From positions 30,934 to 94,933 of the forward strand of contig WFSL01000036.1 of NCBI GenBank assembly GCA_015486015.1: a stretch of DNA of 64,000 nt, in the 5' to 3' direction. The position numbers were made by a program, and so were the translations under genes. This DNA comes from Aquificota bacterium. GTDB taxonomy: Bacteria > Thermosulfidibacterota > Thermosulfidibacteria > Thermosulfidibacterales > B14-G1. This document shows positions 23,426 through 33,560 of this stretch, piece by piece. Below the pieces are notes generated by a model, which ran no database searches, was not told the origin of the DNA, and worked only from the letters and a program-made list of their open reading frames with translations. Position 1 is the stretch's first letter; every line of letters starts with the position of its first letter.

Positions 23426-24442
23426 ATGGGTGAGCTCAGATTTAATGAAAATTTATGCCTAAACTGCACCACATTCGACTGTCTCAAAAAGTGTAAATTT
23501 GTTAAACTGAATGGAGCTAAAGGAAATTTGGAAATGCTCAAAATAGCTCGAGGAGAAGATTCCACAGTGCTAAGAACTTGCATTACATGTTATGCCTGTG
23601 AGGAGTATTGTGAAAAAGGAAATCACCCATTCTACTTGATATCAGAAAAGAGAGAAGAAAAGGGAATAGATATAGTGCCCAGGCCTATACTAAAGCAGTG
23701 GATTAATCTTGGAGAACCAGTTGGAAGATACAAGGTAGGAGAACTTAGAGAAAAAACTTTATCTTTTGGATTTGTACCAGAGTTCCTACAATGGGTTAAA
23801 GGTAAACTATTCGAAGATGTTATGCCATCCTATGTTTTTGGACAAGAATTCTTCTGCAATGTAGCTTATCTGCACTTTGGAAGGACCTCAGTGATAAAGC
23901 AGAGATTGCCCATCGTAATGGATAATTTCAGCAAGCTGGGCATAAAAGAGGTAATTTGCCTCCATGATGAGTGTTATGGAGCTTTCACTTCTTTAGCGCC
24001 AGCTTTCGGTATAGAAGTCCCTTTTAAACCTATTCATTATTATGAGTATATTCTAAAGAGATTAGAGCAACTAAAGGATAAAATAAGGCCCTTAAATATC
24101 AAGGTGGCTTATCAAAGGCCATGTTCATCCAGACTGTCTCCACCTATGCACTACCTTGCCAGAGAAATCTTCACTTCTATAGGGGTGGAACTTGTTGATA
24201 GAGTATACCAGGATGAAAATGCCCTATGTTGTGGTGAAGTAGTGAGGCTTCAGGGACTATACGATCTCGCAGAAGAGTTGCAAAGAGAAAACATAGAAGA
24301 TATTGTAAAAAGCGGAGCAGAGTACTGTGTTTTTAACTGCCCATACTGTTACGCTGCTCTTGGCCACAAGCTAATCAAGAAAGGGGTCAAGCCTATTCAC
24401 ATTATTGAACTCTGCAGAATGGCCTTAGGAGAGGAGGTGTAA
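23426..24442 (+). CDS. (Fe-S)-binding protein with ferredoxin-like N-terminus and CCG (Cys-rich) domain (GlcF/HdrD-like)
   Basis: 338 aa. It has CLNCTTFDCLKKC and CITCYACEEYC cluster motifs, and a C-terminal ALCCGEVV...NCPYC CCG motif. Confidence 0.75.
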   Translation: MGELRFNENLCLNCTTFDCLKKCKFVKLNGAKGNLEMLKIARGEDSTVLRTCITCYACEEYCEKGNHPFYLISEKREEKGIDIVPRPILKQWINLGEPVGRYKVGELREKTLSFGFVPEFLQWVKGKLFEDVMPSYVFGQEFFCNVAYLHFGRTSVIKQRLPIVMDNFSKLGIKEVICLHDECYGAFTSLAPAFGIEVPFKPIHYYEYILKRLEQLKDKIRPLNIKVAYQRPCSSRLSPPMHYLAREIFTSIGVELVDRVYQDENALCCGEVVRLQGLYDLAEELQRENIEDIVKSGAEYCVFNCPYCYAALGHKLIKKGVKPIHIIELCRMALGEEV

Positions 24443-24444
24443 TA

Positions 24445-25830
24445 ATGAAAGAAAGTATAAAATCCGCTTTGATAGAGATAGCAGGAGAAGAATATGTCTC
24501 TACATTTGAGGAGGAATTATATTTCTATGGGCGAGATCCTGGACTAAGTTTTCCCTCCAATCCCCACTATGTAGTGCTGCCTGAAAATACAGAAGAGATT
24601 CAACAAATAGTGAGATTGGCAAACAAAGAAGGAATACCCATAGTGCCATTGGGGGCTGGACTCTCCTTAACAGGCCTGGCTATTCCTCGGAGAGGAGGAA
24701 TCGTTATTGACATGAAGAGGATGGACAGGATCTTAGAGGTTAATGAAAAGGCCAGGTTTGTTATTGTTGAAGGGGGTACCTCTCAGGGTAAGCTCCAAGC
24801 CTACTTGGAGAAGCATTACCCGAGATTGAGACATAGTATCCCTGATGCGCCTCCAACCGCTACTATAGCGGCGAATGTGGTCATTCACGGGCAAGGCAGG
24901 CTGAGTCAGCAGTATGGGTTCAACTCCGACTTAGTAGCAGGTATGGAGGTGGTTTTGCCAAGTGGCGAGATTTGTAAGGTAGGCTCTTGTGCCGTATCCC
25001 CCTATTGGTTTTCAAAGGGACCTCCCCTTCCAGATATATCAGGGCTATTTCTTGGATGGTTCGGCACCACGGGTATCATTACTAAACTGGCCATTAAGCT
25101 CTATCCCAGAAAGAAGATGAGAGATTTGGAGATTTTTGTAACTGACAATGAAAACCTTATTTCGGACATCATATATGAAGTCACTCATACAGAAATGGTA
25201 GAGGACATTACAATTTTTGCCCAACCATGGCCTTTGTTTTTCAAGGACAACTCCCACATATGTATATACTTCACTGGAGATACAGAGGAAGAGTTAGAGT
25301 TCAAGAGAAGAGTGATATGGAAAGCATTAGAAAAGTTTATAGAGTCTAAAGAAGGAGGATTCATGTGGGTCCAACCATCCATGAAACCCACATTTTTAGA
25401 TATGCCACAAAGGAGCGTAGCCAGGTTTGCAGATGTGAAGAGAGGAGGGGGATTTGAATATTCTGGTCCTATCCTGTTGGTAGAAAAATATCCTGAATGC
25501 ATGAGAAAATTGAGGGAATTATCTACAAAGTACAACTTGGCCTATTCAGCTATGGCGAGAATAATCGATACAGCTCATTGCATGATGTTTGCCTTTGCTT
25601 TTGCTTTCAATAGAGCAGATGAAGATATGGTAGAAAGGGCAAGAAGAGCCATGGCAGAAGTAAGCAAATTCATCATAGAAGTAGGAGGAGTTTTCTGGAA
25701 ACCCACAGTTGAAGAACAGAAATTGACAATAGAGCATATAGATTCTGGCACTCTTAAACTACTAAAGATGATCAAGAATCACTTAGATCCTAACAATATC
25801 ATGAATCCCAGCAATTGGGAATTAAGGTAG
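24445..25830 (+). CDS. FAD-binding oxidoreductase (FAD_binding_4; GlcD/VAO-type)
   Basis: 461 aa. The N-terminal PCMH-type FAD domain reads VVLPENTEEIQQIVRLANKEGIPIVPLGAGLSLTG and VIVEGGT. The gene starts 3 nt after the upstream stop. Confidence 0.85.
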   Translation: MKESIKSALIEIAGEEYVSTFEEELYFYGRDPGLSFPSNPHYVVLPENTEEIQQIVRLANKEGIPIVPLGAGLSLTGLAIPRRGGIVIDMKRMDRILEVNEKARFVIVEGGTSQGKLQAYLEKHYPRLRHSIPDAPPTATIAANVVIHGQGRLSQQYGFNSDLVAGMEVVLPSGEICKVGSCAVSPYWFSKGPPLPDISGLFLGWFGTTGIITKLAIKLYPRKKMRDLEIFVTDNENLISDIIYEVTHTEMVEDITIFAQPWPLFFKDNSHICIYFTGDTEEELEFKRRVIWKALEKFIESKEGGFMWVQPSMKPTFLDMPQRSVARFADVKRGGGFEYSGPILLVEKYPECMRKLRELSTKYNLAYSAMARIIDTAHCMMFAFAFAFNRADEDMVERARRAMAEVSKFIIEVGGVFWKPTVEEQKLTIEHIDSGTLKLLKMIKNHLDPNNIMNPSNWELR

Positions 25831-32225: not shown

Positions 32226-32243
32226 TGTAGAGAGGTGGAGACC

Positions 32244-33560
32244 ATGGAAGTCTATGAATGGACCGATTGGGCCCGATTGAATACGGAACCCGGCAGGGCC
32301 AAGGACAAGCCTCAGGCCCTGGACGGTGTGACAGTGTTGGATCTCAGTTATGGTAGCTTCGCCGGCCTCTTTGCCTCTTCTCTCATGGCGGAGATGGGGG
32401 CCAGGGTCATCAGGGTGGAGCCCCCCGAGGGGGACATTGCCCGGAATATGACTCCCCAGGCCATGAAGGTGAAAGATACAGGCCTGGCCTACATAGTGGA
32501 GGGGCGCAACAAGCATCACATCACTCTGGATATCAACATCCCTAAAGGAAGGGAGATCTTCTTAAAGATGCTGCCCAAGGTGCAGGTCCTTATAGAGACC
32601 TTCCCTCCCAGATACATGGAAAATTTGGGCCTGGGCTGGGAGGTCCTCAGAGAGAGGAATCCCTCTCTCATCTACTGTGCCATCAACAGCTGGGGCCAGG
32701 AGGGGCCTGCCGTGGACGAGGGCATGGGTCAGGGGACCCTGGACTACGACGTAGTGGCCCAGGCTCTGGGGGGCTTTGCCTGGACGGTAGGGCTCCCCGA
32801 AGACTACACCGAGTTCCCCGAGTATACCCGGGTGCCCACCCGCATGGGCAACTGGATGGGCTGGTACATGGGAGGAGCCATGGCCGCCTTCTCCATCATG
32901 TCGGCCCTTATTTTTGCCGAGGCCACAGGGGAAGGCCAGTTCATTGACATCAGCCCAGCCGAGGCCCTCGCCACCGTAAATAACTATGCCTTCCATGTGT
33001 ATTACCTGACGGGCCTGGTCATAGGCAGGGTGGCCAATTTTGAACCGGCGGCCTATGCCTACCACTATGTCCAGGCAAAGGATGGCATGGTCTTTCTGGC
33101 GGGCTACGCCGATCCCAACTGGAAGGCCCTTTGTTCCATTATCAACCGGTCTGATCTGGTGGAGAAGTATCCCACAGTGAAGGACAGGACCAACCCCAAG
33201 AACTTTATTCCCATGACCCAAGAGATAGAGAAGTTCACCAAGAGGTACACCAGAGAGGAGATCCTCAAGATATGGCTGGACTATAGGGGGCCGGGGGTGA
33301 CGGTGGCCGGGGAGGTTTTGAAACCCTTGGAGTCCATGAAGCTGGAGCACTGGCATGAGAGAAAGGCTCTCATGAAGATCAAGGATAAGGATTATGGAGA
33401 GCTTCTGGTCCAAGGCATCACCTCCAAGATGAGCGGTACTCCTCCCGTGCTCAAGTGGGTATGCCGACCCGTGGGTGCCGACAACAGCCTCATTTACAGG
33501 GAACTCCTGGGTTACGACGAAGAGGAGCTGAACAGGCTAAAAGCCCAGGGGGTGGTTTGA
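32244..33560 (+). CDS. Family III CoA-transferase, paralogue 2 (catalytic Asp apparently absent)
   Basis: Contains GVTVLDLSYGSFAGLFASSLMAEMGARVIRVE. The equivalent active-site stretch reads RMGNWMGWYMGGAMAAFSIMSAL and has no Asp. Confidence 0.8.
   Translation: MEVYEWTDWARLNTEPGRAKDKPQALDGVTVLDLSYGSFAGLFASSLMAEMGARVIRVEPPEGDIARNMTPQAMKVKDTGLAYIVEGRNKHHITLDINIPKGREIFLKMLPKVQVLIETFPPRYMENLGLGWEVLRERNPSLIYCAINSWGQEGPAVDEGMGQGTLDYDVVAQALGGFAWTVGLPEDYTEFPEYTRVPTRMGNWMGWYMGGAMAAFSIMSALIFAEATGEGQFIDISPAEALATVNNYAFHVYYLTGLVIGRVANFEPAAYAYHYVQAKDGMVFLAGYADPNWKALCSIINRSDLVEKYPTVKDRTNPKNFIPMTQEIEKFTKRYTREEILKIWLDYRGPGVTVAGEVLKPLESMKLEHWHERKALMKIKDKDYGELLVQGITSKMSGTPPVLKWVCRPVGADNSLIYRELLGYDEEELNRLKAQGVV

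Follow-up and report, generated by a model that had tools for sequence, protein, structure and literature searches.

We analysed a 64,000-nucleotide stretch of DNA from an Aquificota bacterium (GenBank assembly GCA_015486015.1, contig WFSL01000036.1, positions 30,934 to 94,933), here called the window. It contains a cluster of eight co-directional open reading frames (ORFs) on the forward strand at 23426-33560. Genes 1 to 3 encode an iron-sulfur (Fe-S) protein, a flavin adenine dinucleotide (FAD) flavoprotein and a second Fe-S protein, here called the trio. Genes 4 to 8 encode an acyl-CoA dehydrogenase (ACAD), a fusion of a domain resembling 3-hydroxy-3-methylglutaryl-CoA (HMG-CoA) synthase (HMGS, also HMGCS) with a DUF35 domain, a thiolase and two family III CoA-transferases. 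An earlier note, made from the sequence alone, had treated these genes as one acyl-CoA-processing cluster of unrecognised composition. The best overall explanation, which we hold with moderate confidence, is that the cluster arose by the recent joining of two separately inherited modules, module A (23426-27014) and module B (27108-33560).

Gene order, composition and the module boundary

The eight ORFs are recovered at the same coordinates by an ORF check of the window, and a Shine-Dalgarno-like motif lies upstream of each of the eight start codons. The identical contig is present in a public record (L001: ENA ERZ23495180 scaffold_20; also GCA_027077485.1), in which an independent gene caller placed the same eight starts. 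Gene 5 is recorded in the public database as a 482-residue form beginning at the second methionine, against 483 residues here. From gene 1 to gene 8 the junction gaps are 2, 26, 93, 9, -4, 25 and 18 bp; the largest, at 27014/27108, coincides with the boundary between modules A and B. Pfam and NCBIfam profiles uphold the domain calls of all eight genes. Together these results bear out the description of eight co-directional, tightly packed genes with the domains first assigned to them. The reading of the eight as one inherited unit is not supported, in the light of relatives that lack genes 1 to 3, of autonomous trios and of a compositional step at 27014/27108.

The GC content at third codon positions (GC3) is 0.36, 0.42 and 0.46 in genes 1, 2 and 3, 0.61-0.75 in genes 4 to 8 and about 0.6 in the surrounding genes; it is 0.59 in the DUF2400 gene just 5' of the trio. 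The step is located at the 27014/27108 boundary, and the low-GC3 stretch extends over only about 4.2 kb, with genes of native composition on both flanks. The spacer at the boundary (27015-27107, forward strand) is 93 bp long with 39% GC and includes the AGGAGG ribosome-binding site of the ACAD gene. It also contains a perfect 6-5-6 palindrome, ATCCAT-AGATA-ATGGAT, at 27041-27057, which is unconserved in relatives and could be an operator or a small hairpin. A consensus scan of 22.8-34.5 kb found no promoter or terminator in the spacer, the scan performing no better than on shuffled sequence and being uninformative on operon structure. DNA homology to relatives begins precisely at the ACAD start codon (27108), and the DNA 5' of it is unconserved.

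The ACAD, the HMGS-like::DUF35 fusion and the thiolase recur in relatives at 69-94% identity. ACAD-fusion-thiolase is present in loci L003-L008, L171 and L172, in which the ACAD and thiolase are 91-94% identical to those of the window and genes 1 to 3 are missing at that locus. The genes 3' of the thiolase vary: L003-L005 have two CoA-transferases, L006/L007 have two AMP-ligases and L171 has a short-chain dehydrogenase/reductase (SDR). The trio for its part occurs autonomously in many Desulfobacterota, in unrelated contexts. Its closest homologues (71-72% identity) lie on contigs of 41-43% GC, with a gene-2 GC3 of 0.40-0.42 compared with 0.42 in the window. Because of the GC3 step, the module B relatives without a trio, the boundary of homology at the ACAD start and the autonomous trios elsewhere, we conclude that the trio of about 4.2 kb was horizontally acquired from a low-GC lineage and inserted between the DUF2400 and ACAD genes.

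The 528-bp non-coding leader 5' of gene 1 (22898-23425, 36% GC) probably arrived together with the trio; it contains no riboswitch, and a comparison with Rfam gave nothing at E <= 0.1. Nor is there support for an island targeted to a tRNA or tmRNA gene, as there are no att-like direct repeats between the tmRNA and tRNA-Met genes and the trio, and no integrase was found. The two RNA genes lie about 5 kb 5' of the cluster, where a lower-GC stretch begins; the tmRNA gene (tag peptide AEPSYALAA) is at 17503-17858 on the forward strand and the tRNA-Met gene at 18080-18156 on the reverse strand.

The eight-gene arrangement is found in no other lineage among 79 fusion-bearing and 84 trio-bearing loci. 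The neighbourhood search that had been proposed, with the fusion as bait, thus gave no recurrence of the eight-gene synteny among the 79 fusion loci. The judgement that no described pathway matches the cluster holds, as no characterised syntenic operon was found.

The acyl-CoA module

Gene 5 (28257-29708, forward strand) encodes a putative HMGS-like pseudoenzyme domain (residues 1-335) fused to a DUF35 zinc-ribbon/OB-fold domain (residues 356-483), the latter comprising the Pfam families zf-ChsH2 and OB_ChsH2_C (formerly DUF35). The N-terminal half scores 198.5 bits with the archaeal HMG-CoA synthase model PRK04262 (cut-off 244), and the protein scores 135.5 bits with TIGR00748 (cut-off 353). 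The catalytic tetrad of HMGCS is Glu-Cys-His-Asn (E82, C114, H238 and N270 in Methanothermococcus thermolithotrophicus numbering; PMC12960953). Alignment against the M. thermolithotrophicus enzyme (6ESQ_I), S. aureus MvaS and PhlA shows that all four positions are substituted in gene 5, E82 by T76, C114 by M108, H238 by P231 and N270 by D262 (6ESQ_I numbering). The tetrad Glu, Cys and His are retained in 0 of the 120 best gene-5 homologues. With the tetrad absent and the curated-model scores below their cut-offs, gene 5 is, as far as sequence can tell, not an HMG-CoA synthase. The label HMGCS-like given to it in the earlier note is therefore correct for the fold and not for the catalysis, since the tetrad is gone.

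The AlphaFold2 model of gene 5 has a pLDDT of 83 and a pTM of 0.88. Its best fold matches are PhlA (5MG5_A, 1e-28), archaeal HMGCS (6ET9_I, TM 0.87) and MucA; PhlA and MucA are also the best PDB sequence matches of the N-terminal domain. The DUF35 domain, in the C-terminal 128 residues, matches 6ESQ_E (1e-15), and its zinc-ribbon cysteines (Cys369, 372, 383 and 388) are invariant among homologues. Among close relatives, identity is 63-72% in the HMGS-like domain, 80-86% in the DUF35 domain and 91-94% in the neighbouring enzymes; the faster divergence of the N-terminal domain would fit a structural rather than a catalytic constraint. PhlA and MucA, which do not have the tetrad, are non-catalytic scaffold members of HMGS/ACAT/DUF35 complexes (PMC12960953). 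By analogy, gene 5 would most likely be a non-catalytic scaffold and CoA-site partner of the thiolase, a one-chain equivalent of PhlA and PhlB.

A protein search with the fusion gives 5,245 hits, and the family comprises more than 5,000 clusters. It is carried by at least 576 species genomes in a scan of one genome per species, including Thermodesulfobacteriota, Syntrophales, Dehalococcoidia, Bacillota and some archaea. The order fusion then thiolase is near-invariant across 79 loci in many phyla (76 of 84 loci in one count). The neighbour families in the 79 loci are ACAD (41), AMP-ligase (36), SDR (24), family III CoA-transferase (18) and crotonase (17). Further neighbours are MaoC pairs, 3-hydroxyacyl-CoA dehydrogenase (HADH), a second thiolase with a free DUF35 protein, a mutase, a carboxyltransferase and Liv-type ABC transporter genes. 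Of these family labels, several rest on BLAST clusters and on a reading of representative sequences, and those of the enoyl-CoA hydratases, ligases and SDRs were verified with Pfam. Two fusion-thiolase pairs occur in tandem or on one short contig in L013 (8321-11340) and L080, from Dehalococcoidia/Chloroflexi, which indicates paralogous expansion. In archaea (Ca. Methanoliparum, Ca. Methanolliviera, Methanobacteriota and Thermoplasmata; P0025, P0039; L016, L051, L063) the fusion is named HMG-CoA synthase, but these copies too are without the catalytic Cys and Glu. In a search of the literature for HMGS-like/DUF35 fusions of anaerobes, no paper describing this family directly turned up, and the sole published mention found was LrcC-LrcD.

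Gene 6 (29705-30904, forward strand; 399 residues) is a thiolase of the archaeal/SCP-x type, whose first 4 bp are shared with the end of gene 5. The protein scores 658 bits with PRK06157 (cut-off 403) and carries the thiolase motifs C89-A-S, H296-D-C-F and G345-H-P. Its PDB matches are 7YVY_A and 6ESQ_A (1e-57), BbsB (7PXP_C, 2e-47) and, at only 6e-27, PhlC. The thiolase-like subunits PhlC and MucB are without the HDxF motif (PMC12960953); gene 6 keeps it and in this respect falls outside the PhlACB/SmaATase type. From its motifs gene 6 looks like an active thiolase, the catalytic subunit of the gene 5/6 pair. Since the CxS, HDxF and GHx motifs are kept and the protein is closer to archaeal ACAT and BbsB than to PhlC, our reading is that gene 6 is a true thiolase, which would be held by gene 5 as a one-chain scaffold resembling PhlA and PhlB. 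In gene content the pair corresponds to the tripartite thiolase/HMGS(-like)/DUF35 complexes, all three components being encoded together with a 4-bp overlap.

In the archaeal thiolase/HMGCS/DUF35 complex the three components are homologous to those found here (6ESQ_A, 6ET9_I and 6ESQ_E), and the thiolase likewise retains HDxF. The cluster differs from it in three respects: the HMGS-like part of gene 5 is without the tetrad, so that no HMG-CoA would be made; the HMGS-like and DUF35 parts form a single polypeptide; and the genomic partners are catabolic (ACAD, CoA-transferases) rather than genes of the mevalonate pathway. The PhlACB and SmaATase (MucABC) systems share with gene 5 an HMGS-like subunit without the E-C-H-N tetrad, which is structural in those systems. 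In PhlA, the best match of gene 5, the tetrad is replaced by C/G/Q/D, compared with T/M/P/D in gene 5. The thiolase here differs from that of these systems in keeping HDxF, resembles true thiolases and stands in a context of acyl-CoA catabolism. The apparent combination of an active archaeal-type thiolase with a dead HMGS that is of the PhlA type and joined to DUF35 was not found described in the literature.

Gene 4 (27108-28247, forward strand; 379 residues) is a butyryl-CoA-dehydrogenase-like ACAD in which all three Pfam domains of the family (N, M and C) are present, as is the catalytic Glu (Y362-E363-G-T). Its best PDB match is an acyl-CoA dehydrogenase chain (5OL2_C, E = 1.7e-101) of an entry that we take to be the Clostridioides difficile Bcd/EtfAB complex. 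It is 92-94% identical to the copies in L003, L006 and L172, and its scores with the substrate-specific NCBIfam equivalogs are all below the cut-offs.

The two family III CoA-transferases are encoded in tandem. Gene 7 (30930-32225, forward strand; 431 residues; CoA_transf_3, 7.8e-103) would be the catalytic subunit. In family III CoA-transferases the catalytic Asp (Asp169 in Frc) forms an acyl-aspartyl anhydride, and in alignments with YfdE and Frc-type enzymes Asp183 of gene 7 takes the position of this residue. Its nearest NCBIfam models are the succinyl-CoA:mesaconate and succinate-glutarate CoA-transferases, both below cut-off. Gene 8 (32244-33560, forward strand; 438 residues) is a paralogue with 29% identity to gene 7. 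It has the fold and the Pfam family (CoA_transf_3), but alignment to YfdE and other solved transferases places Trp207 at the position of the catalytic Asp. This Trp is kept in the gene-8 orthologues of L003 (83% identity) and L064 (37%), each in tandem with an Asp-bearing paralogue. Gene 8 is thus probably a non-catalytic partner subunit, and the residues suggest that genes 7 and 8 form a heteromer of one catalytic and one dead subunit. The nearest models hint weakly at a dicarboxylic, branched or alicyclic acid as the substrate, with succinyl-CoA as the donor; a dicarboxylate with this donor is a reasonable but weak guess.

Directly 3' of the cluster, at 33636-33941 on the forward strand, lies a 101-residue C-terminal remnant of an AMP-dependent acyl-CoA ligase (AMP-binding_C, 1.1e-9). 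It shares 77% identity over 71 residues with the C-terminal end of the second of the two ligases encoded at L006/L007, where the gene order is ACAD-fusion-thiolase-ligase-ligase. The transferase pair would therefore have displaced a ligase pair in this lineage, the remnant appearing as a fossil of an earlier ligase-type activation cassette. The cluster itself contains no ligase gene, as had been noted, and the remnant is an addition to that observation.

The 3' half of the cluster had been likened to the bbs-type logic of beta-oxidation, and the comparison stands: a CoA-transferase pair and an ACAD are present, the thiolase has a DUF35 partner, and there is no hydratase or hydroxyacyl-CoA dehydrogenase. 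Genes 7 and 8 match the BbsEF chains (9FN0_A and 9FN0_B) of a two-subunit family III CoA-transferase, and in both systems an ACAD accompanies an SCP-x-type thiolase working with a DUF35 zinc-ribbon protein. Unlike the Bbs operon, the cluster does not include the BbsH hydratase and the BbsCD dehydrogenase and so does not present the full gene set. Its DUF35 domain is fused to an HMGS-like domain that BbsA does not have, and gene 6 scores 167 bits with the BbsB equivalog model (cut-off 750).

The LrcC-LrcD limonene ring-cleavage operon also contains an ACP_syn_III_C plus zf-ChsH2 protein beside a thiolase (PMC12583861). It includes an ACAD and a CoA-transferase, and further hydratases and dehydrogenases, with the proteins expressed during alicyclic acid-CoA degradation (PMC12583861). 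For LrcC, compared here by architecture only, the authors propose a catalytic HMGS-type cleavage; gene 5 is without the residues needed, and chemistry of the LrcC type is disfavoured for it because the tetrad is missing.

The Fe-S/FAD/Fe-S trio

Gene 1 (23426-24442, forward strand; 338 residues) encodes a soluble HdrD-like Fe-S protein (CCG, E = 3.4e-10) with an N-terminal pair of Cys motifs of the ferredoxin type, C11-C23 and C52xxCxxCxxxC62, and a CCG motif at residue 268. Gene 2 (24445-25830, forward strand; 461 residues) is a flavoprotein of the VAO/GlcD superfamily (FAD_binding_4, 1.3e-33; FAD-oxidase_C, 5.7e-13). It scores 120 bits with the glcD model TIGR00387 (cut-off 568) and has no GEHG or G.HG motif. 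Its matches in the PDB, by sequence as well as by fold, are divided equally between two groups, that of eugenol oxidase/VAO/PCMH and that of D-lactate dehydrogenase, with a model pLDDT of only 69.6. Gene 3 (25857-27014, forward strand; 385 residues) encodes a soluble HdrD/GlcF/TfrB-like Fe-S protein (Fer4_8 and two CCG domains) with two [4Fe-4S]-type Cys motifs; its best NCBIfam match is TfrB at 119 bits, below cut-off. None of the three proteins has a transmembrane-like segment (maximum 19-residue Kyte-Doolittle mean 1.0-1.5). The domains and solubility proposed for the two Fe-S proteins flanking a GlcD/VAO-type flavoenzyme are thus upheld, while the cut-offs of the glcD and GlcF models are not reached.

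In their domains (FAD_binding_4, FAD-oxidase_C, a 4Fe-4S dicluster and two CCG domains) genes 2 and 3 agree with Desulfovibrio vulgaris DVU3027-28 (PMC4481167), and in this they resemble Dld-II, GlcDEF and YdiJ. They differ in the additional Fe-S/CCG subunit, gene 1, and in scores far below the cut-offs of the glcD, GlcF and YdiJ models. Gene 2 is also without the GEHGD-like motif bearing the essential His of lactate-binding enzymes (PMC4481167). Its fold matches to D-lactate dehydrogenase are no better than those to eugenol oxidase, VAO or PCMH.

The trio genes have many homologues of about 70% identity in Desulfobacterota. In the loci retrieved with gene 2, the order of genes 1, 2 and 3 is kept in about 72-78 of 84. 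The neighbours are heterogeneous: a major facilitator superfamily (MFS) transporter directly 3' in 8 loci, Liv-type ABC genes with a ligase, FeoB and housekeeping genes. An acyl-CoA-family gene is within reach of the trio in 27 of 82 loci and absent in the other 55. The share of acyl-CoA-family genes is 13.7% at the trio-adjacent gene compared with 5-9% further out, several of the loci belonging to one clade, and the association between the trio and acyl-CoA genes is suggestive only.

Particular arrangements do place the trio beside such genes. In one clade (L152, L156, L160, L161 and L163, partially L141, L154 and L159) an AMP-ligase and genes 1 to 3 form an operon, with a 36-bp gap, divergent from fusion-thiolase-MaoC-SDR-SDR-ACAD. 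In L121 a thiolase, a DUF35 gene, one further gene and an ACAD precede the trio, and in L129 the trio is near DUF35 and thiolase genes on the opposite strand. In L114 and L118 an HADH gene precedes the trio; in L153 a CoA-transferase gene follows it. An orthologous trio with 55, 65 and 50% identity is convergent with fusion-thiolase in L035, from Dehalococcoidia. The redox link between the trio and the acyl-CoA module that had been suggested is plausible: the trio adjoins thiolase/DUF35 modules in four other locus types and an AMP-ligase operon in one clade, but most trio loci are without such neighbours.

The superclusters of L152/L156/L163 (1-12534), L160 and L161 represent the fullest co-localisation of the trio with a complete beta-oxidation set. 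One arm comprises ACAD, SDR, SDR, MaoC, one unassigned gene, thiolase and fusion; the other comprises AMP-ligase and genes 1 to 3, followed by feoB and an iron-dependent repressor. The idea that the trio stands in for the missing hydratase and dehydrogenase was rejected, as clusters of this type carry MaoC and two SDRs besides the trio. A second gene-2-like flavoprotein gene is often found in divergent orientation two to six genes 5' of the trio (L087, L092, L093, L096, L097, L100, L103, L105, L108, L109, L111, L112, L116 and L117); in L087 it adjoins Liv-type ABC transporter genes.

Mechanism, alternative readings and surroundings

In the mechanism that we propose for module B, a heteromer of genes 7 and 8 would activate a carboxylic acid by CoA transfer, with gene 7 catalytic and gene 8 structural. 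The Bcd-like ACAD (gene 4) would yield the enoyl-CoA, hydration and 3-hydroxyacyl-CoA oxidation would be supplied from elsewhere in the genome, and the gene-6 thiolase would cleave the 3-oxoacyl-CoA. Gene 5 would hold the thiolase in a thiolase/HMGS-like/DUF35 assembly and add to a shared CoA-binding site, as in the archaeal and PhlACB complexes. The activation genes would be exchangeable in evolution, the CoA-transferase pair having taken the place of two AMP-ligases, of which a stub is left. Module A would be a self-contained soluble dehydrogenase in which a single flavoprotein of the VAO/GlcD fold is combined with two HdrD-like Fe-S/CCG subunits. It would oxidise an organic substrate, with [4Fe-4S] and CCG clusters conducting the electrons to an acceptor that is either a thiol/disulfide or a quinone. 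Modules A and B may be co-transcribed, and a loose functional link between them is plausible.

Several points weigh against this interpretation. The eight genes may be one transcript, given that neither promoter nor terminator was detected in the 93-bp boundary. The trio adjoins thiolase/DUF35 modules in four other arrangements (L035, the L152 clade, L121 and L129), besides the AMP-ligase operon of one clade, and such juxtapositions argue for some functional coupling. All enzyme-specific NCBIfam models are below their cut-offs. The scaffold role of gene 5 is drawn by analogy with PhlA, and many invariant charged residues of its N-terminal domain (R82, D102, R137, E146, D176, D179, E193 and R195) could form a new active site.

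The most serious competitor, although an unlikely one in our assessment, holds that the cluster is one pathway operon in which the trio is an integral redox partner, performing an extra dehydrogenation of the acid or CoA ester or serving as an electron outlet for the ACAD independent of electron-transfer flavoprotein (Etf). The genes are co-directional, no terminator is recognisable in the 93-bp boundary, the juxtapositions just listed are independent and differently arranged, and the acyl-CoA-family share peaks at the trio-adjacent gene. That peak is without a proper genome-wide control and includes several loci of one clade. The 55 of 82 trio loci without acyl-CoA neighbours, with MFS, Liv-type ABC, FeoB and housekeeping partners frequent, speak against such an operon, as does the absence of a trio in cis from the nearest module B relatives. 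The trio is also compositionally foreign here, and the L152 clade already has a complete beta-oxidation set. To our knowledge VAO-fold flavoproteins are substrate dehydrogenases and not acceptors for ACAD, which also counts against this reading. In its favour is a thematic parallel with the 'Magic' and BzS1 clusters of anaerobic benzene degraders, in which a GlcDEF-like FAD/Fe-S/FAD complex is encoded together with a ligase, with a hot-dog hydratase and with a pair of class III CoA-transferases, besides beta-oxidation enzymes (PMC13101534, PMC13416013, both 2026). The ORM2 'Magic' cluster and BzS1_12970-90 resemble the present cluster in having a GlcD-like flavoprotein and an Hdr-like Fe-S protein near activation and beta-oxidation genes in strict anaerobes; in gene content, on which alone they were compared, they are FAD/Fe-S/FAD, unlike the Fe-S/FAD/Fe-S order here. 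A bolder and rather doubtful proposal is that the trio is a new kind of soluble dehydrogenase for organic-acid and acyl-CoA catabolism in strict anaerobes, working with thiolase/HMGS-like/DUF35 modules. It would provide an extra oxidation or an Etf-free routing of beta-oxidation electrons to the thiol/disulfide or quinone pool. The partnership would here be brought into a single operon and be mechanistically related to the GlcDEF-like complexes implicated in anaerobic benzene activation.

The remaining alternatives concern gene 5 and the assembly. An active HMG-CoA synthase superfamily enzyme, making or cleaving a 3-substituted 3-hydroxyglutaryl-CoA, is improbable. LrcC, of the same Pfam architecture (PF08541 and PF12172), adjoins the thiolase LrcD, was detected in the proteome and was assigned the cleavage of 3-hydroxy-3-isopropenylglutaryl-CoA by the authors (PMC12583861), and the N-terminal domain of gene 5 scores 198 bits with the archaeal HMGCS model. 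This score is below the 244-bit cut-off, however, the Cys nucleophile, general-base Glu and His are replaced in gene 5 and in 120 of 120 best homologues, and the role of LrcC, which is compared by architecture only, comes from annotation rather than assay. We give very little credence to genes 5 and 6 being a Friedel-Crafts C-acyltransferase of secondary metabolism, like PhlACB or SmaATase. The tetrad loss is shared, and in sequence and fold the N-terminal domain of gene 5 finds its best PDB matches in PhlA and MucA, but gene 6 keeps HDxF, unlike PhlC and MucB (PMC12960953), and is nearer to archaeal ACAT and BbsB than to PhlC. The neighbours, moreover, are ACAD, CoA-transferase, ligase, hydratase and dehydrogenase genes, not polyketide or tetramate genes. 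Equally hard to credit is an assembly chimera of two organisms' DNA at about 27.0 kb, for which the sharp GC3 step and the metagenome assembly source might be cited. Both junctions, including the left one at DUF2400, are present in two records (130,449 bp and 19,461 bp, possibly from the same reads), and the low-GC3 stretch is bounded by native-composition genes on both sides.

With the two modules taken as separately inherited, the interest moves from a single eight-gene pathway to the pseudo-HMGS::DUF35 family, the dead-subunit CoA-transferase with its cassette exchange and the horizontally acquired trio. The large family widely labelled HMG-CoA synthase, including the copies in the alkane-oxidising archaea Ca. 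Methanoliparum and Methanolliviera, would consist of catalytically dead HMGS folds that are fused to DUF35 and paired with thiolase. Reconstructions that use it for mevalonate synthesis or for HMG-type C-C cleavage (e.g. LrcC) are probably wrong, and its real role would be in the assembly of a beta-oxidation thiolase complex. The activation step of module B, be it a CoA-transferase pair, a ligase pair or an SDR, is swapped like a cassette, and one of the CoA-transferase subunits appears to be a conserved pseudoenzyme. Among bacteria of the sulfate-reducer type the trio is common. This uncharacterised redox complex recurrently adjoins genes for acid uptake, activation and beta-oxidation, and is thereby a tractable target for biochemistry. 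These points are relevant to the annotation and study of anaerobic degradation.

The cluster contains no hydratase, hydroxyacyl-CoA dehydrogenase, Etf, regulator or transporter gene. Hydratase and hydroxyacyl-CoA dehydrogenase genes are also absent from the 20 kb on each side, and no Etf gene or glycyl-radical enzyme is present anywhere in the window, in which nothing points to hydrocarbon metabolism. Outside the cluster the window is ordinary chromosome, with purC, eno, ftsY, kup, tmRNA, tRNA-Met, queF, truA, ccsA, hemA/C and mur genes. Its sole hydratase-like gene is of the MaoC type (3438-3908) and overlaps the enolase stop. It could not be assigned as the missing hydratase, having at most 40% identity to the MaoC genes of fusion-thiolase modules.

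On the 3' side a GC-rich hairpin of 12 pairs (33954-33982) follows the ligase remnant. It was found in a scan for terminator-like structures, in which it scored on the reverse strand, the tail on the forward strand not being T-rich, and is possibly the 3' end of the transcription unit. A 102-residue ORF without a family at 34028-34336 (forward strand) is probably non-coding, and a 383-residue ORF at 44997-46148 (reverse strand) has no Pfam match. Two further genes lie 7-10 kb 3' of the cluster. One, at 40521-42197 on the reverse strand, encodes a full-length AMP-dependent ligase with about 28% identity to ligases adjacent to the fusion-thiolase pair or to the trio, and the other, at 43252-44010 on the forward strand, encodes a 4HBT/DUF4442 thioesterase.

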